Assembly (NCBI GenBank): GCA_018062515.1
Contig: JAGOSC010000002.1
Span: 20,807-84,806, forward strand
Length of the DNA stretch: 64,000 bases
Origin: Candidatus Omnitrophota bacterium
GTDB taxonomy: Bacteria > Omnitrophota > Gorgyraeia > Zapsychrales > Zapsychraceae
Direction of reading: 5' to 3'
Position 1 is the first letter of the stretch, and each line of letters begins with the position of its first letter. Below the pieces are notes generated by a model. It saw nothing but the letters and a program-made list of their open reading frames with translations, ran no database searches and was not told the origin of the DNA. Shown piece after piece: positions 5,878 to 62,193 of the stretch. Made by a program: the position numbers and the translations under genes.

Positions 5878-6119
5878 TGGACAGAAAAAACATTACAGAA
5901 AAAACGATTGAACTTGTGTCTTTAATATTTAAAGAAGATAAGGCCGCGCTTAATTTGGAAACGGAGTTAAGTCATATTAAAAATTTTGATTCTTTGGAAC
6001 AATTAAATTTGTTTTTGAAAATCGAACAAGAATTTAAAACCAATTTCGATATGCAGGAACTTGTGCGTATGAAAAAAATTAAAGACATCGTCGACGGTAT
6101 AGCGGTACGGAAATTATGA
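5877..6119 (+). CDS. acyl carrier protein
   Basis: 80 aa with a DSLEQL phosphopantetheine-attachment serine motif; start overlaps the FkbH stop. Confidence 0.7.
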   Translation: MDRKNITEKTIELVSLIFKEDKAALNLETELSHIKNFDSLEQLNLFLKIEQEFKTNFDMQELVRMKKIKDIVDGIAVRKL

Positions 6120-6664: not shown

Positions 6665-6665
6665 C

Positions 6666-14252: not shown

Positions 14253-15396
14253 AACAGCAAAAGATCCGCAAACATATCACGGCATGAAATATCGGCTTTT
14301 TTTTGCCGGTTTTTTTCTGGATACCATTTTGTTTTTGTTTTTGCTCTATAGTGGAATGACCTTTAGCATTAAACATTCCGCCCATTCCATAGTCAATCAA
14401 GTCTCCGTCGGGAATGCATTTTACGTTGCCTGCTTAAGTATCTTTTTGTATATCATTCACTTTCCGTTAGGTTATTTTAATGGATTTGTTTGGGAACATA
14501 GACATGGATTGTCCAACCAAACATTTGGACAATGGATAAAGGATGACCTTAAGAAATTTGTTTTGGGACTGGTTCTCTCGACGATCTTAGTGTGCGCGAT
14601 TTATTGGTTCTTAGGGCGGATGGGCGGCGCGTGGTGGTTGATGGCCGGAACTTTTTGGCTATTTTTAAGTGTCGTGTTAGCTAAATTAATGCCGAATGTC
14701 ATTGTGCCATTATTTTACAAATATAAGAATATCGACGATGAATTGTTGAAACATAGCATTCACGAAATGTTTAATCATTGCCGTACAACTCTTAAAGATA
14801 TTTACGCTATTGATTTTTCAAGTAAGACAAAAAAGGCCAATGCGTTTATCTGCGGGCTGGGAAAATCCCGTCGAGTTGTCCTGAGTGACACATTGCTCTC
14901 GGAATTTGATAAGGAAGAAATTGAAGCCGTGGTGGCGCACGAATTAGGACATTATTGTCATCGCGATATTGTTAAAATGCTGGCCGTGAACGCGGTTTTG
15001 ATTTTTTCAGGATTATATATCATCGATAAGGTTTTAAAGGGCGCGGTCAATTACTTTGGTTTTGATGGAATGAATGATATAGCCTCCTTGCCGCTTTTTA
15101 TTCTGGTTTTTTCTTTATTAGGCATTATTGTTACTCCGTTAACCAATTGGTATAGTTGTCGCATGGAGAAATCAGCCGACGAGTTTAGCTTAAAACTAAC
15201 AGATAAGCCCGGCGCTTTTATCAGTATGATGGAAAAATTAGGACAGATGAATTTGTCAGAATTTCAGCCGAATAAATTTATCGAAATATTTTTTTATGAT
15301 CACCCGCCCCTTCAACAGCGGATTAATTTTGCCAGAAATTTTAAAAAGGATAATGAACATGACCGAAGCAAAATCAGAAAAAAGAAAATATCTTAG
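14245..15396 (+). CDS. M48-family (Ste24/HtpX-like) membrane zinc metalloprotease
   Basis: Several N-terminal transmembrane segments and the HELGHY zinc-binding motif (VAHELGHYCHRD). Confidence 0.75.
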   Translation: MHKTAKDPQTYHGMKYRLFFAGFFLDTILFLFLLYSGMTFSIKHSAHSIVNQVSVGNAFYVACLSIFLYIIHFPLGYFNGFVWEHRHGLSNQTFGQWIKDDLKKFVLGLVLSTILVCAIYWFLGRMGGAWWLMAGTFWLFLSVVLAKLMPNVIVPLFYKYKNIDDELLKHSIHEMFNHCRTTLKDIYAIDFSSKTKKANAFICGLGKSRRVVLSDTLLSEFDKEEIEAVVAHELGHYCHRDIVKMLAVNAVLIFSGLYIIDKVLKGAVNYFGFDGMNDIASLPLFILVFSLLGIIVTPLTNWYSCRMEKSADEFSLKLTDKPGAFISMMEKLGQMNLSEFQPNKFIEIFFYDHPPLQQRINFARNFKKDNEHDRSKIRKKKIS

Positions 15397-15829
15397 AACC
15401 GCTAAAAAAGTCCCGATGGATTTCTCGCCGGTGGATCATCAGGAAATACTTCTTCCCGGTGTGGGTTGGCAGAAGGGACAAACCGTTAATGTCAGCCAAG
15501 GCGGTGTCTGTGTCGAAACGGAAACCTTAAATGAATCCGTGATTAGATATTTGAATCAACAGCAAATTTTGCTGGCTTTAAAGTTTCATATTCCGTTTTA
15601 TAAAAAAACGGTGCATGCGATAGGGAACGTCGCGTGGTATGAAAAAGAAGAAACCTCCATAGGCATACGTTATACATTAGGAATCAAGTATCGTTCGATA
15701 AAACCCGTCGACGTTCAGGTTCTTCTTCGGCAAACAGCGATTTTTAAATTTTTTCTTTATATTGTTTTTATTTTGACCACCCTTTTCGTCGGAAGTTTGA
15801 TGTATTATTTCTTAATCAGCGCACGTTAG
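15353..15829 (+). CDS. PilZ-domain protein with C-terminal transmembrane segment
   Basis: RKYLR (RxxxR) and NVSQGG (D/NxSxGG) c-di-GMP-binding motifs. An internal ATG was chosen to limit overlap with the upstream gene. Confidence 0.55.
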   Translation: MNMTEAKSEKRKYLRTAKKVPMDFSPVDHQEILLPGVGWQKGQTVNVSQGGVCVETETLNESVIRYLNQQQILLALKFHIPFYKKTVHAIGNVAWYEKEETSIGIRYTLGIKYRSIKPVDVQVLLRQTAIFKFFLYIVFILTTLFVGSLMYYFLISAR

Positions 15830-31135: not shown

Positions 31136-31173
31136 AAGCCTATTCTTCTCATAAAAAGAATAGGTTTTTTTTT
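31136..31173 (+). terminator. intrinsic-terminator-like hairpin (9-12-bp stem, 8-nt loop, T9) only 25 nt upstream of the next + strand gene
   Basis: cctattctt [ctcataaa] aagaatagg followed by ttttttttt (31139-31173). No + strand CDS lies upstream of it. Confidence 0.5.
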
Positions 31174-31198
31174 GAACTCATAAAAGGGCAGGAACAGG

Positions 31199-32332
31199 AT
31201 GAATCAGGCGAGAATCGCAATTTTTGTAATCTCCATAATGGCGATACCCGTTTTTGCTTTGGCAGAAACATTGACCATGACAACGTATTATCCTTCCCCT
31301 TTTGGTGTCTATCAATCATTAAGGTTGGCTCCCAACGCTTCAGCGCCAGCTTGCAGCGGTTCGACGACCGGAACGATGTATGTAGATACGTCAAATATAT
31401 TACAATATTGCGATGGAACATCCTATTCAACTATCGGTGAATGGATTTTAAGTGGAACGGATCTTTATCCTCGATCTTATGAGGATGCGAATGTCGGGAT
31501 AGGAACCAACGAACCAGATGCGAAATTGCACATATTTAGTGATACTGACCCAACCGCTATCCGAATACAAACTGGTCTTTTGCCTTCCTGGGAATTACAA
31601 GCTAATGACACAAATCCTCAGAAAGGATTTTCTATTTGGAGTGAATCTGTAGGAACGGTTTTGTCCATTTTACCCGCATCTGGAGGACTGGTTGGTATTC
31701 AAACAACCACACCTTCATCGGCATTGGAAGTGAATGGAGATATTGAATTAGAAGACAATTTGATTTTTAACGGAGTAACTCCAATGATTTCCACAACACA
31801 AGCTGATTTATCTGTAGTCCCGAGCAGTGGCTTTAGCCTTCGGGCCGACCTTAGTGGAAGAGGTCGGTTTTACGTTTATGATGGGGATGTGGGGGATCAT
31901 TTATTAACAGTTGATCAAACGACCAGACGCGTCGGAATCTTGAATGAGGCGCCGACATCGGAATTAGATGTTAATGGGACTGTTACGGCCATCAGCTATT
32001 TGTATGCTTCGGATGCTCGTTTTAAAGAAGATTTTAAACCAGTTTTAGGATTAGACGGCATTATGCAGTTGGAAGGTTTAAGTTATACCTGGAAAGAAAA
32101 TGGCAAACATGATATTGGAATCACCGCCCAGGATGTGGAAAAAGTTTATCCGGAATTGGTGTATACGGATGAAAAGTCCGGTAAAAAATATGTGGAATAC
32201 GGTAATTTAATTGCGCCGATGATCGAGGCCATTAAGGATCAGCAAAAATTAATTGAGTATCAAAACGCAGAAATTGATGCATTAAGGAAAGAATTCCATC
32301 AAATGAAGCATGATATGGATTTTTTGCGTTAA
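31199..32332 (+). CDS. exported tail-fibre-like protein with C-terminal intramolecular-chaperone (peptidase S74) domain
   Basis: Signal peptide; NVGIGTNEPDAKLHI-type tail-fibre repeat; C-terminal SDARFKEDFKPV...LSYTWKE...GITAQDVEKVYPELV pattern of the self-cleaving chaperone of endosialidase/tail-spike. Confidence 0.6.
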   Translation: MNQARIAIFVISIMAIPVFALAETLTMTTYYPSPFGVYQSLRLAPNASAPACSGSTTGTMYVDTSNILQYCDGTSYSTIGEWILSGTDLYPRSYEDANVGIGTNEPDAKLHIFSDTDPTAIRIQTGLLPSWELQANDTNPQKGFSIWSESVGTVLSILPASGGLVGIQTTTPSSALEVNGDIELEDNLIFNGVTPMISTTQADLSVVPSSGFSLRADLSGRGRFYVYDGDVGDHLLTVDQTTRRVGILNEAPTSELDVNGTVTAISYLYASDARFKEDFKPVLGLDGIMQLEGLSYTWKENGKHDIGITAQDVEKVYPELVYTDEKSGKKYVEYGNLIAPMIEAIKDQQKLIEYQNAEIDALRKEFHQMKHDMDFLR

Positions 32333-32349: not shown

Positions 32350-33609
32350 ATGATAAAATATCTTTGGGAAAAAACAATCTTCTTCGTCACAATTATATTG
32401 TTTATGTTTGTTTCAACATCATATGCTGGTCAAGAAACGTGTGAGCGAGGAGAGTCTGGGTGTATTTGTTCATATACGAGAGATGGAAGTTATGTTTGTT
32501 ATAAGACAAAGATAGGAGATTCATGTAATCCTCGCGGGACTTTTGGAAGCGATGGTCAGGACGGCGAAATTGGAATCGGAGCTGATACGGGAAATATTGG
32601 GTCTTCTGAAGGATGTTATTGCGATGACGGTCCAACCGGAAAACAAAATTGCCGTACTTACGGAACGGAAACATCGGGATTTTTACTTGCTCAAGAGGCG
32701 GGACAAGGAAAAGTTCCGGCTTTACGAATAAATTTGACCTATACTTCTGACACGGAACCAAATCGCGGTGAGTTAGAATGTTGGGACATTACTAACGAGA
32801 ATCGTGAAGAATATTTTATCCCGACGGCTTCGCAGGAAGAATGGAATACTTTTAAAGCTAAGGTTTTAGAAAATACTGTGTCTGGTGTAACCATGACTAA
32901 GTGTCCGAGTTGCGGAGATCGGATATGTTCTAATCCCGCCACTTATTGGGGATATATTGAAGGTTGCGGTTCTGATGACAGCATGAATCCATCAGTTGAA
33001 ACCGGCGATCCGATGTGCAATACCGATTGTCATGCTTGTCCTATTGTTTGTGGGGACGGCGTTTGTGCCGCCGGAGCGGAAGATTGTACAGGCGGGATTG
33101 GAGATAATCCATGTGCTGATTGCGGAGCGTGTACCTGCGGAGACGCAGATTTCGATTGTACCGGGCAATGCGGTAAGTGTGCCGATTGTTCTCCCTGCTG
33201 TGAGGACGGAGTCTGTGATGCCACTGAAGATAATACAACTTGCGCGGCGGATTGCCCGGCAACAGGTGTATGCACGGGAGCAGTGCCGATTAATTCAATA
33301 TTATGTCCGGGAGATGATACAGGTTTAACAGCAGATGCGCCTAATTCATCAGTCACGGCTTGTACCCCTGGAACCAAATGTGAATATTTATGTAACGCCA
33401 ATACACAATTTGTTGCAGATGAATGCCGATATTGCGCGGTTGCAACAGGAAAAGGTTGCGATACTGGCGGGGGGGATGATTGTAGTCTTTTAGCTGATTG
33501 TTCCCTTAGTGATGGGTGTCCAGTTTTAGGCTATTGTCGTGTAGATTACACCGGTGACTGCAGCGTTTCTCCGTGCGGAGATTTATATGAATGTCAAATT
33601 TGTCTTTAG
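32350..33609 (+). CDS. exported cysteine-rich repeat protein (~60 Cys; CxDGxC / CGxC modules)
   Basis: Signal peptide (cleavage ~SYA/GQ), then Cys, Gly, Asp and Thr make up most residues. Recurrent CGDGVC, CEDGVC, CADCGAC units. Confidence 0.55.
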   Translation: MIKYLWEKTIFFVTIILFMFVSTSYAGQETCERGESGCICSYTRDGSYVCYKTKIGDSCNPRGTFGSDGQDGEIGIGADTGNIGSSEGCYCDDGPTGKQNCRTYGTETSGFLLAQEAGQGKVPALRINLTYTSDTEPNRGELECWDITNENREEYFIPTASQEEWNTFKAKVLENTVSGVTMTKCPSCGDRICSNPATYWGYIEGCGSDDSMNPSVETGDPMCNTDCHACPIVCGDGVCAAGAEDCTGGIGDNPCADCGACTCGDADFDCTGQCGKCADCSPCCEDGVCDATEDNTTCAADCPATGVCTGAVPINSILCPGDDTGLTADAPNSSVTACTPGTKCEYLCNANTQFVADECRYCAVATGKGCDTGGGDDCSLLADCSLSDGCPVLGYCRVDYTGDCSVSPCGDLYECQICL

Positions 33610-33784: not shown

Positions 33785-33813
33785 TTGAACAATAAAAAGT
33801 AATGATATATACT
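33785..33813 (+). promoter_or_regulatory. candidate sigma70 promoter TTGAAC-17-TATACT
   Basis: 33785-33790 TTGAAC, 17-nt spacer, 33808-33813 TATACT, 25 nt upstream of the 33839 start. Confidence 0.4.
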
Positions 33814-33838: not shown

Positions 33839-35077
33839 ATGCGGAGATTCTCCCAAAAAATAAATTTTAAAAAGGGGCAAAGCATTTTCGAATATGCCCT
33901 TTTGATTTTTTTAGCCCTCGCCGGAGTTTATATTCTGACTCCTTTTGTTGTCCGTTCATGGAACGGAAATATTAAAGGTTGGCAAGATTCAATGACCGAC
34001 TCCTACCAAGAACCCATTGGGGCAGCGCCTCCAAGAGCTACTCATATAGATTGTCAATGTTCTTATCAATGTAATAATCCACCTCCGGGCGGAGACGGCC
34101 TTTGTTGTGGGCATGGCACCTGTGAAGAATATCAAAATGCCATGGTATGGACCTGTAATCATGCTGGTTGTCAGGATCCTCCGGGCGGAGAAGTTAATAG
34201 ATACGATTGTAGTGACGAAAACCCAGGATGTTGCACAACACCGGTTAAATTGAAGGTGCCGGATTACTGTGGTGAAACTCCGTGTTTGCCTGAGGAAGTA
34301 CCGGCCGGATATTTTTGTGGAGGGGATCCGCACACGCCACCTAATCCATGGGAAAGATACGTCTGTGAACCTGATCCGAGCTGCGTATATCAATGTGATC
34401 CACAATCCCCCGCGCCATGTGTTTTTCCTTTGCCTTGTGCTACACCGAAGGTAGGATATCATAATGATATTTGCCGAAATGACAATTTAAATTTACCGGG
34501 TCCGGACGATACGTTAATGACCTTCGTTGAAAGAGGCAAATGTAGCAGTCCGTCAGAGTATCCAAAATGTGAATGGGAATGTGAGCTACCGTATCACCCT
34601 GATAGAATGCATACTGAATGTAAATGTCCACCAGGATCTTGGGATCCGCCAGACCCTCCTCCTCCCGCTCCTCCTGTAGTTGAATGTGTCATGGATTGCG
34701 GTGCAGGCGCTTTAGATGGCTCTTGCGATCCAAGGACGCCCGGTCTGGGCGAACCAACCCGCTGTGAAGATTTAACATCGTTTCAAGCTTGTCAAGCCTA
34801 TAGAGGCGTATGTTCTTGGGACTCTTCAGCAAGTCCTGCAACATGTGAAACAGTCCTGACTTGTTCGGATTTGCGAACAAATGTGACATTAACACAGCCT
34901 GACCCGGCAATTTACGCTCAATTTACCCGTTGTGATTCTATTCCATGGTGTGGGTGGACCGGTCCAGGTGGCGGATACTGTTGTCCAGCGGTTTTATCAG
35001 TCGATTGTCCTACTGGTGAGGCGCAAAAAGGATCATGCCCGGCAGGTGAAGTTGTGAGATGTTGTGAAGAGCTCTAG
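33839..35077 (+). CDS. Flp/TadE-type (class III leader) protein with large Cys/Pro-rich extracellular domain
   Basis: N-terminus KKGQSIFEYALLIFLALAGV fits the G/XXXXEY prepilin-peptidase motif followed by a hydrophobic helix. The remaining ~370 aa has ~50 Cys and PP(P) runs. Confidence 0.55.
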   Translation: MRRFSQKINFKKGQSIFEYALLIFLALAGVYILTPFVVRSWNGNIKGWQDSMTDSYQEPIGAAPPRATHIDCQCSYQCNNPPPGGDGLCCGHGTCEEYQNAMVWTCNHAGCQDPPGGEVNRYDCSDENPGCCTTPVKLKVPDYCGETPCLPEEVPAGYFCGGDPHTPPNPWERYVCEPDPSCVYQCDPQSPAPCVFPLPCATPKVGYHNDICRNDNLNLPGPDDTLMTFVERGKCSSPSEYPKCEWECELPYHPDRMHTECKCPPGSWDPPDPPPPAPPVVECVMDCGAGALDGSCDPRTPGLGEPTRCEDLTSFQACQAYRGVCSWDSSASPATCETVLTCSDLRTNVTLTQPDPAIYAQFTRCDSIPWCGWTGPGGGYCCPAVLSVDCPTGEAQKGSCPAGEVVRCCEEL

Positions 35078-35118
35078 TTCATTAATCTGTTATATTAAAT
35101 TTTATGGGGAGGCTAATT

Positions 35119-35535
35119 ATGGCCGTTAGGAATTTTAAAATCCTATTTCTTCTTTTTCTCGTAACAAATATTCTTATTGTGGGTTTAAATTTTTTGAACA
35201 TAAACTCTAAAGAAGAAGTTGACGCCCAATGTATAAAAGTTTTACAAGGATATCCACCAATTGAGAATATAGATGCCTGGGATAGTAGTGGGGCTTGCGA
35301 TTCACGAGCTGGATGGGACTCCTCTAAAAAATATTCTTTATGCGTTTTATCCAAAGTGGAACATCAGGATGATAGTGGTGATGATTGTAGTGAAGACACT
35401 GGAAATTTTAGTAGATGTGAACTTTCGAGAATTGGGCCGCTTAGTTCAGATGGTAGAGATTTTTGGCATATACAGGCCTCACGACATCCTGCGTGCAATA
35501 GTTGTATACGATGCCAGGCATTATGTATAAACTAA
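35119..35535 (+). CDS. small exported Cys-protein, paralog 1 of 3
   Basis: GGGGAGG Shine-Dalgarno sequence 6 nt before the ATG at 35119. Hydrophobic N-segment, then EVDAQC, HQDD, and a C-terminal CIRCQALC. Confidence 0.5.
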   Translation: MAVRNFKILFLLFLVTNILIVGLNFLNINSKEEVDAQCIKVLQGYPPIENIDAWDSSGACDSRAGWDSSKKYSLCVLSKVEHQDDSGDDCSEDTGNFSRCELSRIGPLSSDGRDFWHIQASRHPACNSCIRCQALCIN

Positions 35536-35559: not shown

Positions 35560-35934
35560 ATGACCGTCAACAACATTAAAACACCAATGATTCTTTTTTT
35601 TCTATTTAATATTCTTGTATTAGCCTTTAATTTCTTTATTAGTCAATCCAGCGATAAAGTTAACGCTCAACCGGTATGTGAGCAAGTTTTAACCCATTTA
35701 TCTGAGGGATTGAGTACATGTTTCCAGAAAAACGCGAGTTGTGGCCTTCAAACAGATATAACAACTGGGAGTCCGGCCTTTTGTTTTTTGACAAGAGTGT
35801 ATCAACAGGATTCTGCTAGGGATGATCTGTCGTCTTGTTTGCTGCAAAAGCGGACTCAGGATAATGAATGGCAATTGGACTCAATAGCAAACAATAATAA
35901 TAGGGTTGCATGCGAGGCTCAGTGCATAAAATAA
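35560..35934 (+). CDS. small exported Cys-protein, paralog 2 of 3
   Basis: AGGAG Shine-Dalgarno sequence. Same architecture: hydrophobic N-segment, KVNAQPVC, QQDSARDD, C-terminal CEAQC. Confidence 0.5.
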   Translation: MTVNNIKTPMILFFLFNILVLAFNFFISQSSDKVNAQPVCEQVLTHLSEGLSTCFQKNASCGLQTDITTGSPAFCFLTRVYQQDSARDDLSSCLLQKRTQDNEWQLDSIANNNNRVACEAQCIK

Positions 35935-35960
35935 AAATTTGAAATATGAAGGAAGTTAAT

Positions 35961-36344
35961 ATGTCTATCAAAAATAGAAAAAAATTATACATATTCTTTT
36001 TGGTATTTAATATTTTTATAGTTAGCCTGAATTTTTTCTTAATAAGATCAAAAGATGAGGTTAACGCGCAATGTATGTCGCCAATTCTGGGAATTCCAAC
36101 ACAAACTCTAGAGGCCACGCAAGGTAATACTTGTGCTTCAACTGGGGATCAGCATTCAACACTGCCTGCGACGTTGTGTTATCTGACTTTAGTAGAACAT
36201 CAGGATGATAAAACTCGGACGGACAATTTGGCTGAATGTCATGTTTATCAGAACGGAGACCATTGGACTTTACATGCAGGGGGTCCATCATCGGGAAATG
36301 GTACAGAGACTTGTATAAGATGTAAAGCGGAATGTATGAGGTAG
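35961..36344 (+). CDS. small exported Cys-protein, paralog 3 of 3
   Basis: GAAGGAAG before the ATG at 35961. Hydrophobic N-segment, EVNAQC, VEHQDD, C-terminal CIRCKAEC. Confidence 0.5.
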   Translation: MSIKNRKKLYIFFLVFNIFIVSLNFFLIRSKDEVNAQCMSPILGIPTQTLEATQGNTCASTGDQHSTLPATLCYLTLVEHQDDKTRTDNLAECHVYQNGDHWTLHAGGPSSGNGTETCIRCKAECMR

Positions 36345-36646: not shown

Positions 36647-36973
36647 ATGAATAGAGAATTAAACAAACGAAAAAATAAGAGACTGAATTGCGAAGTCCCT
36701 GTAGAAAGTAAAGAGGGGGCTATTTTTGATGCGAGCAGTGTCGTCGATATCAGTCAAGGCGGTTTAGGATTTGTTTCTGCCCGCCGTATTCCTGTCAATA
36801 AACGAATTCCCATTGAAATTGATTTAAAAGAAGATGATGATTCTGTTCTGGTGATCGGCCGCGTTTTATATTCCAAATTAATTTCAGGTTCGTCAAATTA
36901 CCGTATCGGTGTCACATTTGAAAATGTGATGCGCGGTTCTAAAGTACGTCTCCAGCAATATTTTCATAAATAA
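36647..36973 (+). CDS. single-domain PilZ protein
   Basis: RKNKR (RxxxR) and DISQGG (DxSxGG) motifs; 108 aa. Confidence 0.6.
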   Translation: MNRELNKRKNKRLNCEVPVESKEGAIFDASSVVDISQGGLGFVSARRIPVNKRIPIEIDLKEDDDSVLVIGRVLYSKLISGSSNYRIGVTFENVMRGSKVRLQQYFHK

Positions 36974-36980
36974 TATATCT

Positions 36981-37334
36981 ATGTTTGAAGAAATCCGAAA
37001 AGATGACCGGCGTTTATTCGACCGATTTTCTGCCCGTTACCCGGCGAAATTCAAGGACGAGCGCGAATCATTCGGAGAAAATGTGCAGTTATGTGACGCA
37101 TCCGCCTTCGGAGCGCAATTTTCCTCAAGAGACAGACTGTTTTTAAATGACAAAATTGCTTTGGAAGTAGAATTGCCGGATGGTTTGGCGCCGATGGATT
37201 TACGCGGCGAAGTGGTTTGGATCAGAAAAAATGCAGCGAATTCTTGGAATATCGGTTTGAAATTTTATCAAGTTGAGCTTCTTCGAATGGCCCGCCTCTA
37301 TAAATTCCAATCCCAAACATTATCTTCATCATAA
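36981..37334 (+). CDS. single-domain PilZ protein
   Basis: RKDDRRLFDR and DASAFGAQF motifs; 117 aa, tandem with the previous gene. Confidence 0.55.
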   Translation: MFEEIRKDDRRLFDRFSARYPAKFKDERESFGENVQLCDASAFGAQFSSRDRLFLNDKIALEVELPDGLAPMDLRGEVVWIRKNAANSWNIGLKFYQVELLRMARLYKFQSQTLSSS

Positions 37335-37438: not shown

Positions 37439-40135
37439 ATGTCCCATCCTTTGTACCGCTATAATGATGACCAGATTTCGTTTAAATCTGACAAAGCCGG
37501 TTTCAACCGTACGATGTATTTTCCCTTGTGCGGCCCGACATCTAATCACCTAAAATCTTCCATAACTGCCTATTTATCAGGCGATATTAAGCTCGATAAA
37601 AACCGCTATTTAACCAAACCTGTTTCCACGGAAGACTTGCGTCAGCCTCTACGTAATGTTTATCTTCAAATCGACAAAAACATTTTTAGTTTAGCTAATC
37701 CTCAGGATGATCCAAAGACCATTAACGTTGAGGCCGGCCCATTGTGGCATAAAGTCGTTAAACTTGATCCTCAATCTGAAATTGCTATTGAAGCTTTAAA
37801 TTTTATGCCTGTCAGCGGCGAGAATGCGGAATTAATGCGTGTGACAATCACAAATCATTCTTCTATCGTTAAAACAATGACGCCAACGGTCGCAATACCT
37901 TTATTTGCCCGCGCCTTGGAAAATAAACATGATCATGAACATGTGACGAGTTTACTTAACCGTATAAAACAAACCGAACATGGCGTTATGGTTTCTCCGA
38001 CGATGAAATTTGATGAACAAGGTCATAAGCCCAACAAAGACGTCTATTTTGTTTTTGGCATTGAAGATAATGGCCAGCGTATCAAAGGTTCTTTTCCGAC
38101 GGTAGAAACATTTTGTGGTTTGGTGGGCGATTTTAATCAGCCCGACGCTGTAATCACAAATAAAGAACCGGAAGATCTGCATGGGGATGATTTGCAAGGC
38201 CAAGAAGCGGTCGGCGCGCTGCGGTTTTACGATCTCACCTTAAATCCGAAAGAATCCAAAACGTATTTTATCGTGATTGGAATCGCCGGGAATGAAAAAC
38301 AAGCTGAAGAGGTATTTAATCGTTTTAAATTTAGTGAACAATTCAATCATGCGTTTACAGAAAATAATGCATTTTGGCTGAAAAAAACGGATTCCATCAT
38401 TGTCGACACACAGAATAAAGATTTTAACGCATGGATGCGTTGGGTCACCATTCAGCCGGTATTAAGAAGAATTTTCGGTTGTTCATTTCTTCCGGATCAT
38501 GATTACGGAAAAGGCGGAAAAGGCTGGCGCGATATTTGGCAGGATTTATTATCTTTAATTCTCATCGAACCGGAACAAGTGAAAGAGGCTTTACTGAATA
38601 ATTTTGCCGGTATTCGCATGGACGGCTCTAATGCGACGATCATTGGTTCGAATCCCGGAGAATTTATCGCTGATCGGAATGCCATATCCCGAGTGTGGAT
38701 GGATCATGGTGTTTGGCCGCTCATGACCTTGTTTCTTTATATTCATCAAACCGGTGATTTTGACATTTTATTGGCCGATAATACGTATTTTAAAGATCGG
38801 CAATTATCGAGAAATTATCGACGGGACAGTGCGGAATCCATTGATGAGGGCAATAAGTTAAAAGACATTCATAATAAAATTTATAAGGGAACGATTATTG
38901 AGCATCTTTTGGTTCAGCATCTTGTTCAGTTTTTTAATGTCGGTGAACACAATATTATTCGTCTGGAAAATGCCGATTGGAATGACGGTTTGGATATGGC
39001 CTTTCAGCGTGGAGAAAGTGTCGCGTTTACGTGTCAGTATGCGGGAAACATGTTTCAGTTGGCAACGATGCTGGAACAATTATCGACGAGATTACAGGTG
39101 CAGGAATTATCTTTAGCCAAAGAGCTAGCGATATTAATGGATACGATCAATCAACCGATTGATTATTCCAAGGTTCAAGCCAAAAAGACATTACTGTTTG
39201 ATCAATATTTTAAATCCGTCGAACCGAAACTTTCCGGAGAGAAAATCAGTCTTAACATACAAGACATTGTCAGTGATTTGCGTAAAAAAGGCCAATGGAT
39301 TTTTGATCATATCCGTCGGCAAGAGAAGATAACGGTTTCCAATCAAACTTGGTTTAATGGGTACTACGATAATAATGGGAAGCAAGTAGAAGGCCAAATC
39401 GGAAAAACGATTCGGATGACTTTGACCGGACAAGTCTTCGCGGTCATGAGCGGTTTGGCTCAAAAAGATGAAATCAAACAAGTGATCGCGGCGGCGGAAC
39501 AGTTTCTTAAAGATGAAAAGCTCGGCGGATATCGTCTCAATTCCGATTTTAAAGTTCCTCATTATCTTGAATTAGGCCGGGCATTCGGTTTTGCTTTTGG
39601 AACCAAAGAAAACGGCGCTTTTTTCAGTCACATGATTGTGATGTACGCGTTTGCTTTATATAAACAAGGTTTTGCCCGGGAAGGCTATGGGATTTTGCAA
39701 TCCATTTTCAAAATGGCGATGGACACGGACAAAAGCTGGATTTATCCCGGAATTCCTGAATATTTTGATTCCCATGGCCGGGGAAAATATCATTATTTAA
39801 CCGGATCGGCGAGTTGGCTGGTCTTAACTGTTTTAAATCAAATGTTTGGTATAGCCGGATATAATGGTCAGCTCATGTTAGCTCCGAAATTAGTCAAAGA
39901 ACAATTTGGTTCGGATGGAAAAGTCTCGATTCAATGTTATTTTGCCGGAAAGAGATTAAATATTACTTATATAAATTTAACTTTAAAGGATTATGGTCAA
40001 TACAAAGTCAAAGAAGTTGAATTCAATGGCCGTCCATTAACGTCCGTCCAGAATGAATTATCAGAATTTCTTCTCGAGCGTTCGTGGATTGAGAAATCGG
40101 CGGATGAAATAAATCTGGCGGTTAAATTAGGTTAA
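37439..40135 (+). CDS. large glycoside hydrolase / glycoside phosphorylase-like enzyme ((alpha/alpha)6-barrel type, GH94/GH15-like; family uncertain)
   Basis: 898 aa, cytoplasmic (no signal peptide). Segments such as WNDGLDMA and a long helical-repeat region are reminiscent of glucoamylase-like or cellobiose-phosphorylase-like catalytic domains (memory-based only). It heads a sugar ABC-transporter operon. Confidence 0.35.
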   Translation: MSHPLYRYNDDQISFKSDKAGFNRTMYFPLCGPTSNHLKSSITAYLSGDIKLDKNRYLTKPVSTEDLRQPLRNVYLQIDKNIFSLANPQDDPKTINVEAGPLWHKVVKLDPQSEIAIEALNFMPVSGENAELMRVTITNHSSIVKTMTPTVAIPLFARALENKHDHEHVTSLLNRIKQTEHGVMVSPTMKFDEQGHKPNKDVYFVFGIEDNGQRIKGSFPTVETFCGLVGDFNQPDAVITNKEPEDLHGDDLQGQEAVGALRFYDLTLNPKESKTYFIVIGIAGNEKQAEEVFNRFKFSEQFNHAFTENNAFWLKKTDSIIVDTQNKDFNAWMRWVTIQPVLRRIFGCSFLPDHDYGKGGKGWRDIWQDLLSLILIEPEQVKEALLNNFAGIRMDGSNATIIGSNPGEFIADRNAISRVWMDHGVWPLMTLFLYIHQTGDFDILLADNTYFKDRQLSRNYRRDSAESIDEGNKLKDIHNKIYKGTIIEHLLVQHLVQFFNVGEHNIIRLENADWNDGLDMAFQRGESVAFTCQYAGNMFQLATMLEQLSTRLQVQELSLAKELAILMDTINQPIDYSKVQAKKTLLFDQYFKSVEPKLSGEKISLNIQDIVSDLRKKGQWIFDHIRRQEKITVSNQTWFNGYYDNNGKQVEGQIGKTIRMTLTGQVFAVMSGLAQKDEIKQVIAAAEQFLKDEKLGGYRLNSDFKVPHYLELGRAFGFAFGTKENGAFFSHMIVMYAFALYKQGFAREGYGILQSIFKMAMDTDKSWIYPGIPEYFDSHGRGKYHYLTGSASWLVLTVLNQMFGIAGYNGQLMLAPKLVKEQFGSDGKVSIQCYFAGKRLNITYINLTLKDYGQYKVKEVEFNGRPLTSVQNELSEFLLERSWIEKSADEINLAVKLG

Positions 40136-40252
40136 GTAAATTATCCACACCCTACAGCTGGAATATAATTTACTTAATTAAAGGTTTTTGACATTTAATA
40201 TTGAGCGTGATATACTCCTAACTTCAACATTTTCAATATCCTTGGAGCTTAC

Positions 40253-41560
40253 ATGAAAAAACTATCTATTGCGATTCTGCTCATTGTTATGGCAGCCTTT
40301 GGTGTACAAATCATGGGCTGTGCAAAAGTTGAAGATACCAGCAACAAAATTGTTTTATGGCATTGGATGACCGACCGGGATAAAGCCTTTCAAACATTAG
40401 CTGCGAAATATGAACAGTTAACCGGTGTAAAAGTACAAATCCAATTATTCGCCCCGCCAGATACCTATTCCCAAAGAATCACCGCCTCCGCACAAGCCAA
40501 TACCCTTCCTGATATATTCGGAATTCTCGACAAAAAAGAAATTTTTGCGGACTTTATCAAATATAATTTTGTGGCCAACCTAACGGAAGAATTTAATAAA
40601 AATAACAGTGAATGGGAAGCATCGATTTTCCCCAAGGCTTTAGATGTGAACCGTTTTACCGCGGATAATATTTACGGCGTGGAACCCGGAATTTATGGTG
40701 TTCCTATTGATGTCACCAATATACAAATGCTTTACAATAAAAAACTTTTGCAAAAAGCCGGTATCAAGCAACCGCCGCAAACATTCGATGAATTTCTTGA
40801 AGCCATTGATGCTTTAAAACGAGTCGGTGTTCCCGGATTAGTTTCGGGTTGGGGAGAAATTTGGATGACCGACGCTTTTGCCTCCAATTATGCGTTTAAT
40901 ATTATGGGTGAAGAAAAAGTCATGGCGACGTACCGTGGTGATGTTCCATACACGGATAAAGATTGGATCAAAGTTTTAAGCATTTTTAGAACATTGAGTA
41001 AAAAAGGTGCTTTTATTGAAGGGATTGTGACCAAACCGAATAAAGAAGCTGAACAGGATTTTGCCCTTGAGCGGGCAGCTTTTGCTTATAACGGTTCGTG
41101 GTGTGTCAATGTTTATAGCGGGATGAATCCGGATTTGGAATATAGCGCCATGCTTCCTCCGTCGATTAATTCGAAATCACCGATGAAAATTTGGGGAGGC
41201 GCCGGATCTTCTTTTGTCGTTAACAATAATTCGAAAAACAAAGATAAGGCCATTGCCTTTTTGAAATGGCTCTCTGCGGAAGAACAACAAACTTATCTGG
41301 CCACAGAAACTAAGAATCTTCCATCAAATCAAAAAGCCTTAGCGTCCATTCCTGAAATACTTTCTGATTTCGCCAAGGTCATGGAAAATACCACTCATCC
41401 GACGATATGGAAATATAATGAATTGCCGGCGGTGACCGAAGCGTTTGATAAAGGTATTCAATCTATTATTATCGGTGAAAAAACTCCGGAAGATGTAGCT
41501 AAGGAAGTTCAGCAAGTCAAAACTCGTGAAATGGAAAAAGCGGCCAAGAAAGCTAAATAA
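40253..41560 (+). CDS. sugar ABC transporter substrate-binding lipoprotein (solute-binding family 1)
   Basis: Lipobox IMGC and a family-1 SBP pattern; 435 aa. Confidence 0.75.
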   Translation: MKKLSIAILLIVMAAFGVQIMGCAKVEDTSNKIVLWHWMTDRDKAFQTLAAKYEQLTGVKVQIQLFAPPDTYSQRITASAQANTLPDIFGILDKKEIFADFIKYNFVANLTEEFNKNNSEWEASIFPKALDVNRFTADNIYGVEPGIYGVPIDVTNIQMLYNKKLLQKAGIKQPPQTFDEFLEAIDALKRVGVPGLVSGWGEIWMTDAFASNYAFNIMGEEKVMATYRGDVPYTDKDWIKVLSIFRTLSKKGAFIEGIVTKPNKEAEQDFALERAAFAYNGSWCVNVYSGMNPDLEYSAMLPPSINSKSPMKIWGGAGSSFVVNNNSKNKDKAIAFLKWLSAEEQQTYLATETKNLPSNQKALASIPEILSDFAKVMENTTHPTIWKYNELPAVTEAFDKGIQSIIIGEKTPEDVAKEVQQVKTREMEKAAKKAK

Positions 41561-41564
41561 AATT

Positions 41565-42491
41565 ATGGCTCAATCAGCGACGGTCAAGACAATCAATTAC
41601 GAAAAATTAAAAAACACCTCTGAGAATTATATTTTTATTATTCCCGCCGTTATTATTTTTTCCATTTTTTATATTTATCCATTTATTGATATTATTATCC
41701 TTTCTTTACATGAATGGAAAGGAATAGGCCCAAAGACGTTTGTCGGTCTACAGAATTTTAAAGAACTCATAGGCGACAAAATCTGGTGGAAGTCCATTTG
41801 GAATGCCACCTACATCACTTTGTGGGCTCTGACATTTCAGAATGTTTTGGCTTTTATGCTCGCCTTGGCATGCGACCGTGAAATTCGTTTTAAGAAATTT
41901 TATCGTGTTGTTTTTTTTATTCCGCCAGTATTGTCGCAAGTCGTCGTCGGACTCATTTGGCGATGGATTCTATATTCAGGAACTCAAAATGGGCAAGAAA
42001 TTGGTCTGTTGAATTATTTTCTCGATTATGTCGGGTTGAATCATTTAGTGAATAATTGGTTGTCTAATCCAGAGACTGCTTTGACCTCTATTGCGATTGT
42101 GCATTGTTGGCAAGGATTTGGTTGGGGCTTTATTATGCTTTTGGCCGGACTGCAGACAATTGACAAGCAGTTATACGAATCAGCTAAGGTCGACGGGGCT
42201 GATAATTGGTCGACGTTTTGGAATGTCACTATTCCGATGATGGTTCCGGTTATCTTGGTGGTGGTGATTTTGACGGTTTTAGGAGCGATGCAGGCTTTCA
42301 TTTTGGTTTTATCCATGGTCAGTCAAGGGCTCGTGTATCACACGGAAGTTCCGGTGACGCGTATTTTGGCGGCCATGCAGGGGACAAAACAATTTGGTTA
42401 TGCCTGTGCTATGGGTATTAATTTTGCGATGATATTGATTTCCGTATCCGCGGTCATGAAATTAATTTCAAATAAGGCGCAACAAGCGTAA
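41565..42491 (+). CDS. sugar ABC transporter permease (MalF/UgpA-like)
   Basis: 6 transmembrane segments and the EAA-like loop (ESAKVDGADNWSTFWNVTIP). Start taken at the ATG just after the SBP stop. Confidence 0.75.
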   Translation: MAQSATVKTINYEKLKNTSENYIFIIPAVIIFSIFYIYPFIDIIILSLHEWKGIGPKTFVGLQNFKELIGDKIWWKSIWNATYITLWALTFQNVLAFMLALACDREIRFKKFYRVVFFIPPVLSQVVVGLIWRWILYSGTQNGQEIGLLNYFLDYVGLNHLVNNWLSNPETALTSIAIVHCWQGFGWGFIMLLAGLQTIDKQLYESAKVDGADNWSTFWNVTIPMMVPVILVVVILTVLGAMQAFILVLSMVSQGLVYHTEVPVTRILAAMQGTKQFGYACAMGINFAMILISVSAVMKLISNKAQQA

Positions 42492-42499
42492 ATTAAGCG

Positions 42500-43348
42500 A
42501 TGGAAAAAATAAATTTACATTTACTCAAAAGATCGTCGAAATACTTCTGTCTACATTTGTTTTTGATCGTCGTTGCTTTGACATGTTTGTTTCCTCTATT
42601 CTGGATGATTCGTTGTTCATTGATGGATAATCAGACGGTCTTTACTGATAAAGGCATCATTCCGCAGGTCATTAATTTCGGAAATTACCCAGATGCTTGG
42701 ATACAGGGAAATTTCGGAACGTATTTTTTAAATAGTTTGATTTATACAACCTGCGTTGTTTTTGGTATTGTTCTTATTTCTTCACTCGCCGCCTTTGCTT
42801 TTTCACGATTAAAATTCCCCGGAAGAAAATTTTTTTATTATATGTTTGTCATCGCTATGATGATCCCATTGCCCGGAAGTTTCGTTCCACTGTTTGTTCT
42901 TATGAACAAATTACATTTGGCTAATACCAAAATCGGCTATATCCTTTGTATGGTCAACGTGGGATTGTCGCTCAGCATCATTCTCTTAAAAACGTTTTTT
43001 GATAAAATGCCGTCGGACTTAGAAGATGCCGCCCGTATCGACGGATGTAATAAATGGCAAATTTGGTGGAATGTCGCTTTGCCGCTCGCTCGGCCTGCCG
43101 TCGCTGTCATTGTCATTTTTAATTCATTGAATGTTTGGAATGAATTTATTTTAGCCCAACTTTTGTTGAGTGATACAAAACATATGCCTCTTCAGAAAGG
43201 ATTGATGGAGTTTGCCGGCGTGCATAATACGAATTATCCGCTTTTGATGGCGGGTTTGACCATCGCCGCTGTTCCAATCATTCTTTTGTATTTGGCTATG
43301 CAAAAACATATTATTAAAGGACTATCTTCAGGAGCTGTGGTCGGATGA
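42500..43348 (+). CDS. sugar ABC transporter permease (MalG/UgpE-like)
   Basis: EAA loop DAARIDGCNKWQIWWNVALP; 282 aa. Confidence 0.75.
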   Translation: MEKINLHLLKRSSKYFCLHLFLIVVALTCLFPLFWMIRCSLMDNQTVFTDKGIIPQVINFGNYPDAWIQGNFGTYFLNSLIYTTCVVFGIVLISSLAAFAFSRLKFPGRKFFYYMFVIAMMIPLPGSFVPLFVLMNKLHLANTKIGYILCMVNVGLSLSIILLKTFFDKMPSDLEDAARIDGCNKWQIWWNVALPLARPAVAVIVIFNSLNVWNEFILAQLLLSDTKHMPLQKGLMEFAGVHNTNYPLLMAGLTIAAVPIILLYLAMQKHIIKGLSSGAVVG

Positions 43349-45675
43349 TCTCAAAATTTAAAAAATATTCCTCAATTTTTCAATATTCAGTTATTTTTTT
43401 ATGTTTAACGATGGATTGTCCGGTGTATGCACAAGACAATCCAGTTGATGTGACAGATAAGATCGTTAATGAATCTTGGGCCGCATCCAGTCAGCGTCAA
43501 GAGGAAAAGGTTAATGAGCTCGTCGGACAATGTGTTGAACGTTATCAGGAACAGGCTAAGGTACTACAAAATAGTTTAACAGCCTTCCCTAATATGACCG
43601 AAGCCAGAAAATATCAGCCGTTAAATGATATTGGTACGTGTCTTTTCATTCAAGCTGAGTATGTGATGAATTCCGGAAAAAAAGAAGAAGCGATCACCAA
43701 ATTCCAGTCGATTATTGACAATTACAGTTGGGCTCAATCATGGGATCCGAGAACCGGCGCGTTTTGGTCTATCGCCGAGAAAAGTCGTCAAAGTATTGAT
43801 GCGATGTTAGGAAAAGAAGATGTTGAAGTTGATGAAACTAAAGATGTGCTTAGAACGGTTCCGGTTTTGTTCACGAAGGGAACCGAAGACGTCGTCGATT
43901 ATACAAAATATGGACAATTTATGAATGTCGGTACTGAAAATTATATTTATCGCATGACCGATATTGAAGGCTTAAAGAAAGCGGTCGGTGAAGGGATTTA
44001 TCCAAACATCGGTGATATTTACAAAAATCCTGGTTATAAAAAAGCCAAGGCGGAAGGCCGTTTAAACGGCAGTCACTGGGATTTTGTCAATCAGGAAGAT
44101 TTAGAAGCTGCCTATTATAAATGGTTCATCGCGCCGGAACCTTGGGGCGTTCGATTGTTTTATTTAGGTTTTATTTTTGAAAGAGCGGGCATGTACGATG
44201 AGGCGCTCAAGGCTTATCAAGCTTTGGTTGTTCATTACCCAAAAACAATCGGGTACACGTATTGGCAAACACCTTGGTACCCTGGTCAAGCGGCCATTGC
44301 TAAAATCCGGCATATTTTGCGGACTCATCCGGAATTAAATTTGGAAGATGACGGCATGAGGATCATCGTCAAAAAAGGTTTTGATAATGATATTAAGAAC
44401 GATAAGATCATTACCTCGCCGGGAAAAATTTTCAAGAGAAAGACCGGTGCTAAGGCTGATAAACTGTATGCCAAAAGTAAACGAGTTAAATTGGATAAGA
44501 TCGTCGAGACCAAAGGCGATGGAATTGTTCAGTTAGTCAAATTTGATAATGGGCATTGGCAGTTAAGGGTCAATGGAAAGCCATACATAATTAAAGGGAT
44601 TACTTATGATCCGACCAAAATCGGACAATCTCCCGATAAAGGAACGCTTCAGAACTGGATGGAAGAAGATACGAACGGCAACGGCCTTGCCGACGGGCCA
44701 TTTGAGGCTTATGTGGACGCGAATCATAATAATAAGAGAGACGGAAAAGAAAAAGTCGTCGGTGATTTTAAAATCATGAAGGATATGGGCGTAAATACGA
44801 TCCGTTTCTATCACATTCCGACGACGCCGAATAAGGAAGTCCTTCGCAAGCTTTACAAGGATTATGGAATCAGAGTTATTCTCGGTGATTTTCTTGGGAA
44901 ATATGCGATTGGTTCCGGAGCGACATGGGTCGAAGGGACCGATTATGAAAATGAAGAGCATAAGAAAAATATGTTAGAGAAAGTTAAGCAAATGGTCATG
45001 GAACATAAAGATGAACCTTATGTTCTTATGTGGTTATTAGGAAATGAAAATAATTATGGGGTAGCATGCAACGCGGATAAAAAACCAGCAGCATATTTTC
45101 GTTTTGCTGATGAAGTGGCCCAATGGATTAAATCCGTCGACAAAAATCATCCCATCGCTCTCGGAAATGGGGACACTTTATTTTTAGATATTTTTGCTGA
45201 GAATACACCCAACATTGATATATTTGCCGGCAATGTGTATCGCGGAGATTATGGATTTGGATCACTTTGGGAACAAGTATCCGATGCGACTAATAATTCT
45301 AAGCCAGCTTTTATTACAGAATATGGGGCTCCTTCTTTTGCCAAACATTTGAATACCGAACAGGCGGAAAAAGCACAAGCGGATTATCATTTGGGAAATT
45401 GGCAGGACATTTATGAAAATTCCGCCGGTCAAGCTAGGGGTGTAGGAAATTCCATCGGCGGCGTTGCTTTTGAATATTTAGATGAATGGTGGAAAAATTA
45501 TGAACCATTCCGGCATGATAAAAAATCAGACGCTGTAGGGCCATTCCCGGGGGGATATTATTACGAAGAATGGTTTGGATTGGTGGGACAAGGCAATGGA
45601 CAAGACAGCCCATTTTTACGTCAACCACGTAAAAGTTATTATCTTTATAAAGAATTATGGAGTAAGGATAAATAG
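43345..45675 (+). CDS. secreted clan GH-A (TIM-barrel) glycoside hydrolase with an N-terminal ~130-aa domain of unknown function
   Basis: Signal peptide. Acid/base-like LGNENNYG and nucleophile-like ITEYG segments at GH2/GH5-type spacing. The N-terminal domain is shared with the next gene. Confidence 0.5.
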   Translation: MISKFKKYSSIFQYSVIFLCLTMDCPVYAQDNPVDVTDKIVNESWAASSQRQEEKVNELVGQCVERYQEQAKVLQNSLTAFPNMTEARKYQPLNDIGTCLFIQAEYVMNSGKKEEAITKFQSIIDNYSWAQSWDPRTGAFWSIAEKSRQSIDAMLGKEDVEVDETKDVLRTVPVLFTKGTEDVVDYTKYGQFMNVGTENYIYRMTDIEGLKKAVGEGIYPNIGDIYKNPGYKKAKAEGRLNGSHWDFVNQEDLEAAYYKWFIAPEPWGVRLFYLGFIFERAGMYDEALKAYQALVVHYPKTIGYTYWQTPWYPGQAAIAKIRHILRTHPELNLEDDGMRIIVKKGFDNDIKNDKIITSPGKIFKRKTGAKADKLYAKSKRVKLDKIVETKGDGIVQLVKFDNGHWQLRVNGKPYIIKGITYDPTKIGQSPDKGTLQNWMEEDTNGNGLADGPFEAYVDANHNNKRDGKEKVVGDFKIMKDMGVNTIRFYHIPTTPNKEVLRKLYKDYGIRVILGDFLGKYAIGSGATWVEGTDYENEEHKKNMLEKVKQMVMEHKDEPYVLMWLLGNENNYGVACNADKKPAAYFRFADEVAQWIKSVDKNHPIALGNGDTLFLDIFAENTPNIDIFAGNVYRGDYGFGSLWEQVSDATNNSKPAFITEYGAPSFAKHLNTEQAEKAQADYHLGNWQDIYENSAGQARGVGNSIGGVAFEYLDEWWKNYEPFRHDKKSDAVGPFPGGYYYEEWFGLVGQGNGQDSPFLRQPRKSYYLYKELWSKDK

Positions 45676-61848: not shown

Positions 61849-62193
61849 ATGTTTATTCTCACCAAAAATGAAACTATCGTTTTAGCGGTTTTTGCCGTCG
61901 TTATTTGTTTGGGCTCAATATTTCATATGCTCATTAAAAAAGCTCCAGTTCTTACTCATTTCACCAATCAATCAGGCACAGGTCTGGTCCATCATAAAAT
62001 CGATATTAATACCGCTGATAAAGTAGAGCTGGAAAGCGTTCCTTATATTGGTGACTATACAGCGTCGGCCATTTTGGAATATCGTCTGAAAAATGGCGCT
62101 TTTAAGAACCTCGAACAATTAAAAATGATCCGCGGAATTCGGGAAAATAATTTTAAACGGTTCCAGCCGTATTTAAAAGTAGGTGGACCATGA
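61849..62193 (+). CDS. comEA: ComEA-like helix-hairpin-helix DNA-binding protein
   Basis: N-terminal transmembrane segment; HhH repeats DINTADKVELESVPYIG...IRGIRENNFKRFQPYL. Confidence 0.7.
   Translation: MFILTKNETIVLAVFAVVICLGSIFHMLIKKAPVLTHFTNQSGTGLVHHKIDINTADKVELESVPYIGDYTASAILEYRLKNGAFKNLEQLKMIRGIRENNFKRFQPYLKVGGP

Follow-up and report, generated by a model that had tools for sequence, protein, structure and literature searches.

The subunits of type IV filaments share a class III (prepilin-type) signal, in which a short basic leader ending in a small residue at position -1 is followed by a glutamate at +5 and about 20 hydrophobic residues. Within this scheme, an EY pair is typical of the Flp pilins, a Q+1...E+5...L+9 spacing is typical of the Pfam family Class_IIIsignal, and a helix-kinking P22 is a hallmark of the pilins of type IVa pili (T4a, T4aP) and type II secretion systems (T2SS). 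TadE, TadF and TadG also carry a prepilin-like N-terminus with E+5; they exceed Flp in size, and a role in priming or capping Tad pili is attributed to them. Modular type IV pilins, exemplified by PilB and PilC of Streptococcus sanguinis, CofB of enterotoxigenic Escherichia coli and GspK of the T2SS, join an N-terminal pilin module through a short linker to a bulky functional module, for which tip display and adhesion are proposed (Raynaud et al. 2021, PMC8179133). A gene of comparable design lies in the 64-kb stretch of Candidatus Omnitrophota DNA analysed here (contig JAGOSC010000002.1, positions 20,807 to 84,806; hereafter the window). On balance, sequence comparison favours the reading that this gene, at 33839..35077 (+), codes for a modular pilin that belongs to the type IV filament superfamily and bears a Cys-rich head on a pilin helix; the protein would be cleaved and assembled into a filament.

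The 412-aa product is identical to an NCBI record, 'hypothetical protein KBD53_00705 [Candidatus Omnitrophica bacterium]', from a metagenome-assembled genome (MAG) contig of 101 kb. Its open reading frame (ORF) begins at the first ATG/GTG/TTG past an in-frame upstream stop codon. A consensus scan and conservation place a putative sigma-70-like promoter (TTGAAC - 17 nt - TATACT) at 33785..33813 (+), ~25 nt 5' of the ATG. The ORF is accepted as a real gene because syntenic orthologues and 176 family representatives exist, and the possibility of a spurious frame is thereby ruled out. The protein is rich in Cys (41 residues, 10%) and Pro (54 residues, 13%). A first-pass annotation of the same DNA had overcounted the cysteines at about 50; the PPDPPPPAPP-type run that it quoted is present, as DPPDPPPPAPP.

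A family of pilin-like modules with cysteine-rich cargo

The protein had also been described as an orphan. That impression is an artefact of word-indexed homologue searching, which returns nothing but the target protein itself, because phmmer, run exhaustively against 1.84 billion cluster representatives, yields 176 relatives at E<=1e-3 and 37 at E<=1e-10. The named sources and 22 loci of GTDB species representatives are almost all Candidatus Omnitrophota, and a few family-bearing MAGs are labelled Planctomycetales or Lysobacterales. No published description of the family was found in a literature search; the family is largely confined to Omnitrophota, at present unannotated and outside the coverage of Pfam and NCBIfam. 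Its members range from ~240 to 824 aa, some with unrelated extra domains, and their alignments resolve three parts: a ~58-aa N-module, a Cys-rich core (target aa 72-263) and a variable C-terminal region. Syntenic orthologues of the target, at 41-49% identity, occupy five other distinct loci. Candidatus Zapsychrus exili has a tandem pair of family copies (L020 299-2630, +) that seem to be divided among several ORFs, one for an N-module of 78 aa, one for a core of 200 aa and one for a 457-aa copy that starts from MGPYV; frameshifts, pseudogenes or errors of assembly could account for this. Elsewhere, a group II intron domain (RF01999, 97.7 bits) stands at the edge of a locus with a solitary family member (L003 59-173, -).

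The N-terminus of the target reads MRRFSQKINFKKG|QSIFEYALLIFLALAGVYILTPFVV, where the bar marks the putative cleavage point, or in a longer read MRRFSQKINFKKG|QSIFEYALLIFLALAGVYILTPFVVRSWNGNIKGW. Residues 1-13 (MRRFSQKINFKKG; 33839..33877, +) form a putative leader that is basic and ends in Gly at -1, in keeping with the short, basic leaders of the family, mostly 5-14 aa long. The pilin-like N-module follows at aa 14-58 (33878..34012, +), with Q+1, E+5, Y+6, a hydrophobic helix and P+22, and then RSWNGNIKGWQDSMTDS; the family N-module hidden Markov model (HMM) scores it at 80 bits. KKG|QSIFEY thus shows the short basic leader, the Gly and the xxxxEY of the G|XXXXEY pattern, and QSIFEYALL supplies Q+1, E+5 and L+9, with S+3 absent. 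The hydrophobic stretch spans ~21 residues, with the conserved Glu near its start. Throughout the six-frame translation of the window, the combination of G-x4-E-[YF..] with a long uncharged hydrophobic run occurs in the target only; a looser ORF scan gave three matches, among which the target is the sole pilin-like one.

Positional conservation, counted relative to the putative cleavage site over 141 sequences, is pronounced. Position -1 is G (70%) or A (28%), and -2 and -3 are K/R/N/S in most sequences. Q+1 was fixed by the selecting pattern among these 141 and is at least 90% conserved in alignments A1 and A3. Glutamate occupies +5 in 98% of the sequences, with Y (87%) or F (7%) at +6, hydrophobic residues from +7 to +20 (G at +16 in 79%), and G (85%) and P (87%) at +21 and +22. 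Positions +23 to +45 continue as Y-V-I-R(97%)-S-W-N(93%)-A-x-x-K-G-W-E/D-D-S-V-x-D(90%)-S(95%)-x-x-D, the R being +26, and this post-helix motif, RSWNAxxKGWEDS, is conserved across the family N-modules. The G-XXXX-EY motif and hydrophobic helix reported in the first-pass annotation are therefore present as quoted, and their -1, E+5 and Y+6 positions are conserved among the 141 relatives.

An AlphaFold2 (AF2) model built with a 122-sequence alignment contains one unbroken helix of 42 residues (16-57) with a predicted local distance difference test score (pLDDT) above 90. The linker between this helix and the core has a pLDDT of ~71 and is followed by a separate Cys-rich, strand-containing domain, with pLDDT 83-95 over most of aa 71-290 and a dip at about aa 191-210; past ~aa 290 the pLDDT is low. 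A single-sequence AlphaFold prediction of the target (pLDDT 41.6) is informative for the helix only. E+5 and P+22 within a long alpha-1 helix, a classical feature of type IV pilins, are found both in the family and in the AF2 helix 16-57. Together, these observations support the view that the target N-terminus behaves as a class III (prepilin-type) signal followed by a pilin helix, with putative cleavage at G13.

Cleavage after G13 would leave a mature protein of 399 aa, in which the N-module passes into a Pro-rich linker at aa 59-71 (34013..34051, +), the region of the pLDDT dip. Next comes the conserved Cys-rich core (aa 72-263; 34052..34627, +), with ~20 Cys that are invariant or nearly invariant in the family alignments. 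Its first Cys, residue 72, is also the first of the whole protein, which, together with the lack of a lipobox, rules out a lipoprotein. The core has no fold match in the PDB or BFVD, no sequence match in the PDB and no match in Pfam. Part of it (aa ~176-262) is homologous to a ~60-aa unit present in ~16 copies in the 1418-1452-aa proteins encoded immediately upstream of four orthologues (L001, L002, L006, L008). The remainder, aa 264-412 (34628..35074, +), consists of the Pro-rich stretch DPPDPPPPAPP and a lineage-specific Cys-rich C-terminal region that is shared by the closest orthologues only.

The architecture is thus modular, with the AF2 helix as pilin module, a lower-confidence linker and a confidently predicted, separately folded Cys-rich domain. 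This supports the fusion of a class III leader to a Cys/Pro-rich domain that was first proposed, whereas the accompanying TadE/TadG-type likeness appears in no family member. The cargo after the N-module differs among members, and many relatives (e.g. P0155-P0170, P0042, P0053) are stand-alone N-modules of 59-80 aa. These are complete genes between other genes and end where the Pro-rich linker of the target starts. The N-module is Flp-sized when alone, and the stand-alone forms look like candidate major filament subunits.

Relation to described pilins and competing explanations

When 50 diverse N-modules are scanned singly against 24,736 Pfam models, Flp_Fap is the most recurrent family (5 members, best E 2.8e-5) and Class_IIIsignal the second (4 members, best E 2e-4); N_methyl is matched by one of the 50 (E 0.06), and no TadE or TadG model appears among them. 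Searched against 5.8 billion proteins, the N-module profile retrieves the family itself and next a group of ~70-aa proteins (KKKGQSTIEYIILVAAVIAALLIFLPG...) with precomputed PF04021 annotations. One of these, P0175, scores 26.2 bits on PF04021 (gathering threshold 23.7) and 21.7 bits on Flp_Fap, below the gathering threshold of 32.2, and it scores weakly on TadF (E 0.13) and DUF4244. Profile-profile alignment of the family N-module with the PF04021-bearing group by hhalign gives a probability of 97.5% (E 5.8e-12, 46 columns). The profile of that group in turn matches seven PDB entries at E<=10, and all seven are type IV filament subunits; the best is Geobacter PilA-N (E 0.0016), and the archaellin matches (E 0.35-6.4) are by themselves not significant. 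With these links, the chain from the target to the family N-module, on to PF04021/Flp-like pilins and finally to solved filament subunits is supported stepwise, and the target itself is tied to PF04021-type pilins at the profile-profile level only. The pilin-like character first claimed for the N-terminus gains support from both the recurrent Flp_Fap and Class_IIIsignal matches and the hhalign link. As for a TadE/Flp N-terminal domain, Flp_Fap is matched, weakly or below threshold, by five of the 50 family N-modules and TadE by none, and the target matches neither.

A wider signature emerges from an array of six tandem small genes (59-151 aa; L031 321-2677, +), all of which have N-termini of the form K[GA]Q-x3-EY...Y-x-x-R-x-x-[QN]-[AG]. 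The array holds a member of the PF04021-like group, one gene is annotated Flp_Fap and another Class_IIIsignal, and the N-module HMM recognises all six at 25-50 bits. This suggests a pilin superfamily signature that would include the N-module of the target.

The Flp/Fap pilins (PF04964) resemble the target in their short basic leader, G|xxxxEY and ~20-residue hydrophobic helix, and the 59-80-aa stand-alone family members match them in size. Unlike Flp/Fap pilins, however, the target carries ~350 extra residues (a mature protein of 399 aa, versus ~40-60 aa), and it and most of its relatives score below the gathering threshold or not at all. Q+1, P+22 and RSWNAxxKGWEDS are specific to the family of the target, no tad locus adjoins it in the window, and the secretins of its relatives are PilQ-like. 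With the class III small pilins (PF04021, originally archaeal, QxSxExxxL) the target shares Q+1, E+5 and L+9, and the nearest non-family relatives of its family carry PF04021, whereas the family itself is bacterial (Omnitrophota) and the target has no PF04021 match. TadE, TadF and TadG are similar in their prepilin-like N-terminus, E+5 and size above Flp, but the target shows no profile likeness to TadE (PF07811), TadF (PF16964) or Tad (PF13400), and none of these is among the top families for the 50 N-modules.

Classical N_methyl pilins (PF07963 / IPR012902) differ at +1, where the family has a conserved Gln in place of the methylatable F/M of G|FTLIE. Geobacter PilA-N (PDB 9egp/7tgg) parallels the stand-alone N-modules in being a pilin reduced to the alpha-1 helix; unlike them, it has a GFTLIE N_methyl-type signal, pairs with PilA-C and does not directly match the family N-module profile. 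The modular type IV pilins use N_methyl (IPR012902) modules with a globular pilin fold, whereas the carrier of the target is of helix-only Flp/class-III type and its Cys-rich cargo is without a match in Pfam, the PDB or BFVD. The modular pilin principle is already known; the new elements are the helix-only Flp/class-III-type carrier, the family-specific post-helix motif and the Cys-rich cargo without structural relatives.

The genomic context of the relatives covers 37 distinct loci. The gene that recurs most often near the relatives, other family genes aside, encodes a small secretin (Secretin_N + Secretin; called lengths 257-514 aa), which lies within ~5 kb at 9 of the 37 loci, in at least three different arrangements, and is the immediate neighbour in four (L017, L019, L035, L045). 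Its best solved relatives are PilQ proteins (E 5e-21), then GspD. N_methyl-type pilins lie 0-7 kb away in four further loci, bringing the loci with secretin or pilin genes near the family gene to 13 of 37. This association is suggestive rather than decisive. The initial assignment of the protein to TadV and the Tad system is not established, as the relatives adjoin PilQ-like secretins and N_methyl-type pilins, not tad genes.

Several of these loci have further features. Between the PilQ-like secretin and the family gene, four loci carry genes for a MerR-family regulator and for an intramembrane protease of the Rce1-like (CPBP) type fused to tetratricopeptide repeats (TPR) (L013 6629-8295, L018 3824-5475, L025 6861-8888, L043 1362-3031). 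At L023, one of the loci with N_methyl-type pilins nearby, four classical GFTLVE-type minor-pilin genes stand among genes for 575- and 626-aa proteins (2067-7318, -), 2.5-8 kb from the family member, with a trypsin-like protease and an FHA-domain protein encoded in between. Large neighbours in L021, L023 and L024, considered as PilB, TadA or TadB candidates, are instead PKD-domain, trypsin-like, FHA and Na/H-exchanger proteins.

If the target is a modular pilin, its preprotein would enter the inner membrane and place its head in the periplasm, the site at which ~20 disulfides would form, and an A24-family prepilin peptidase encoded elsewhere, which could be EppA/PibD-like, TadV-like or PilD-like, would cut between G13 and Q14. 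A type IV filament machine, Tad-like or T4aP/T2SS-like, would use the hydrophobic helix and E+5 of the subunit to add it to a filament (or pseudopilus) made up for the most part of helix-only stand-alone N-modules, which would exit through a PilQ-like secretin. The bulky Cys-rich head would be displayed, most probably at the tip or in few copies, and could act as an adhesin binding a surface or a prey/host ligand, its variable C-terminus setting the specificity; in this sense we infer a tip-adhesin role. As to the type of machine, the sequence type of the putative signal points to Flp or archaeal class III systems, and T4a-like systems are indicated by the neighbours and Pro+22. Since gene sets for Tad (TadBC/RcpA) and T4aP are widespread in Omnitrophota (PMC10066038), the machinery could plausibly act in trans.

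A number of results weigh against this reading. Pfam scans of essentially all sizeable ORFs in the 64-kb window detect neither a secretin nor a prepilin peptidase, nor any ATPase or platform protein of a type IV filament machine. The full target, its first 59 and its first 28 residues find no match in Pfam or NCBIfam, nor does its N-terminus alone match the Flp, TadE, N_methyl or Class_IIIsignal profiles at E<=10, leaving it short of the Flp_Fap gathering score of 32.2 bits; this counts against membership in any curated family. Pilin profiles are matched by only 9 of the 50 relatives, weakly or below threshold, and the N-module profile alone reaches no pilin in the PDB. No filament gene lies within 10 kb at 24 of the 37 loci, and a small genome with ~20-30 filament genes should place some of them close to the family gene by chance alone. 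Among bacterial T4a/T2SS pilins, Q+1 is an unusual residue, and it is unproven that a ~38-kDa head can pass through a secretin.

The pilin-type signal could also operate where no extended pilus is made. The protein would then be a pseudopilin or 'bindosome-like' surface anchor, whose processed N-module oligomerises at the envelope, for example with the T2SS/T4P-like system beside the Omnitrophota giant genes, as a piston, scaffold or head tether. All of the N-terminal evidence applies equally to such a protein, and archaeal sugar-binding proteins carry class III signals without long pili. In Omnitrophota, small class-III-signal genes lie near the gspD/E/F-rcpC (T2SS/T4P-like) system of the giant genes (bioRxiv 10.1101/2023.11.21.568195). 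The order described downstream of these giant genes, namely small pilZ genes, a solute-binding protein, ATP-binding cassette (ABC) permeases and glycosyl hydrolases (West-Roberts et al. 2023 preprint), is the same downstream of the target. Orthologous loci further resemble giant-gene ('archaeovorin') loci in that a 1418-1918-aa Cys-rich protein adjoins the family gene, whereas the window has no giant gene and no adjacent gspD/E/F, and the neighbouring protein is only 419 aa long. The helix-only stand-alone modules, with their resemblance to major filament subunits, and the PilQ-like secretin neighbour, which suggests passage through the outer membrane, speak for a pilus instead, although the evidence as a whole fits a pilus and a pseudopilus alike. 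We consider an anchor or pseudopilin unlikely, if deserving of serious attention.

It is less probable still that the N-terminus is an uncleaved signal-anchor. The product would in that case be a bitopic inner-membrane protein with a Cys-rich periplasmic domain, and the N-module would be conserved because it oligomerises in the membrane or binds a partner, with no relation to type IV filaments. The lack of a direct pilin-profile match in the target, the missing machinery in the window, the distance of filament genes in most loci and the strongly conserved post-membrane RSWNAxxKGWEDS, which is not a known pilin feature, would all fit. Such an anchor fails to explain the near-invariant small residue at -1, Q+1 and E+5 at fixed spacing from a short basic leader. 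Nor does it sit well with the homology of the family to PF04021/Flp-type pilins and through these to solved filament subunits, the existence of cargo-less 60-aa modules or the recurrent secretin neighbour. An ordinary Sec signal peptide, cut by signal peptidase I to release a soluble secreted Cys-rich protein, has its precedent next door, where the S74 fibre protein, the 419-aa Cys-rich protein and three small proteins have classical Sec signals with sites of the ...ALA|E and ...V[ND]AQ|C type. Against it stand the ~21-residue hydrophobic stretch, the conserved early Glu and the single confident helix through residue 57. Signal peptidase I requires small residues at -3 and -1, a rule violated by the sole plausible site, RSWNA|N, with Trp at -3, and secretion of this kind is very improbable.

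Genomic setting and cyclic di-GMP elements

Housekeeping genes are plentiful in the window, which is bacterial DNA; they include those for MnmE, FolC, PurH and LeuRS and thiamine genes. No tad locus genes (tadV/cpaA, rcpA, tadZABC) occur in the 64 kb, and the Pfam scans of the window ORFs confirm the earlier statement that tad/cpa genes are missing within 30 kb of the target. The only loosely related genes of the window encode PilZ-domain proteins (15296-15829, 36647-36973, 36981-37334) and ComEA/ComEC (61849-63815). The ORF at 15296-15829 (+; 177 aa) overlaps the 3' end of an M48 peptidase gene and adjoins a TPR protein. The genes at 61849-63815 (+) specify a ComEA-like (HHH_3) protein and ComEC (Competence + DUF4131), which belong to the DNA-uptake channel machinery and usually work with a pilus encoded elsewhere.

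The target belongs to a cluster that is conserved at five syntenic loci besides its own (L001, L002, L006, L007/L008, L009). The common order is purH, folC, mnmE and cvpA on the opposite strand, then a riboswitch, an S74 protein, a Cys-rich protein, the family gene and two or three small Sec-secreted Cys proteins. In the window, a cyclic di-GMP (c-di-GMP)-I riboswitch aptamer (RF01051; 31040-31120, +) scores 49.5 bits, the Rfam gathering cut-off being 35. It is followed by a terminator-like 12-bp hairpin at 31136-31167, with a T-run to 31174 (31136-31174, +), 25 nt before the S74 fibre gene. The riboswitch is present in all five orthologous loci for which that region is available (L001, L002, L006, L008, L009). 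The best-scoring model for the copies of L001 and L006 is that of the c-di-GMP-I-GGC variant (RF03167), so lineages may differ in ligand specificity.

The first gene after the riboswitch (31199-32332, +) encodes a 377-aa protein with a Sec signal and a C-terminal Peptidase_S74 intramolecular chaperone domain (E 3e-15), a domain typical of trimeric fibres. By its sequence, this bacterial chromosomal gene appears to specify a trimeric surface fibre of the phage-tail-fibre kind. The upstream neighbour of the target (32350-33609, +) encodes the 419-aa Cys-rich protein with a Sec signal; it was considered as a paralogue of the target, and BLASTP detects no such relationship (best E 1.6). Its positional orthologues are 1418-1918 aa long (L001 5616-9872, L002 5563-9858, L006 5608-9870, L008 5501-9859, L009 2878-8634). 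Those of L001, L002, L006 and L008 carry a tandem array of ~16 Cys repeats, each ~60 aa long and matching part of the family core HMM, and the copy in the window appears to have lost this array.

Downstream of the target lie three tandem paralogous genes for small Sec-signal proteins (35104-35535, 35560-35934 and 35946-36344, +), with ..V[DN]AQ| sites and the motifs C[FYV]L[TS].V and C-x-[AC]-x-C. In L037/L038, the small proteins encoded behind the family gene match an HMM of the three (E 1.4e-7). Different small Cys peptides take that place in L001, L002, L006-L010, L012 and L025; such genes are a recurrent companion. Directly after the cluster come two single-domain PilZ (c-di-GMP receptor) genes (36647-36973 and 36981-37334, +), and downstream of this pair genes for GH94, a solute-binding protein, two ABC permeases and GH2 (37439-45675).

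The target lies on the riboswitch strand, 2.7 kb downstream of the riboswitch, with its own conserved, putative promoter directly upstream. The block CTTGAAyA - 17 nt - TATACT aligns 5' of the family gene in the window, L001, L002, L006, L008 and L009. A second RNA element was sought in the 229-bp gap upstream of the target; there is no credible Rfam match there, and the conservation of the gap is that of the promoter. Because no strong terminator intervenes between riboswitch and target, control of the target by read-through is possible. With a c-di-GMP riboswitch at one end of this surface-protein cluster and two PilZ genes at the other, the placement of the gene hints at an attachment programme linked to c-di-GMP.

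Implications for surface display in Omnitrophota

Members of the Omnitrophota are uncultured, ultra-small and thought to be predatory or parasitic, and their attachment apparatus has been inferred only from Tad and T4P machinery genes. Beyond the modular-pilin reading of the single gene, the family and its loci invite a broader and more tentative proposal, which we place on the unlikely side. They may represent a phylum-specific type IV filament whose major subunit would be the ~50-aa helix-only N-module (G/A|Q...EY...GPYVIRSWNAxxKGWEDS), with paralogous cargo subunits bearing hypervariable disulfide-rich heads. Such a filament would form a prey- or host-recognising display, with a small dedicated PilQ-like secretin, S74 fibres and Cys-repeat giant proteins, under c-di-GMP control.

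The family supplies candidate filament subunits and adhesins among proteins that are now annotated as 'hypothetical' and that Pfam and NCBIfam do not cover, and its N-module signature offers a practical search handle for pilin annotation in candidate phyla. If the modular-pilin reading is true, the principle of modular pilins would extend from N_methyl-type to Flp/class-III-type helix-only carriers. The Cys-rich core would likewise be a new disulfide-rich domain without a solved structural relative, part of which builds the repeats of large neighbouring surface proteins. The riboswitch and the PilZ genes would then provide a testable link in Omnitrophota between c-di-GMP signalling and surface display.

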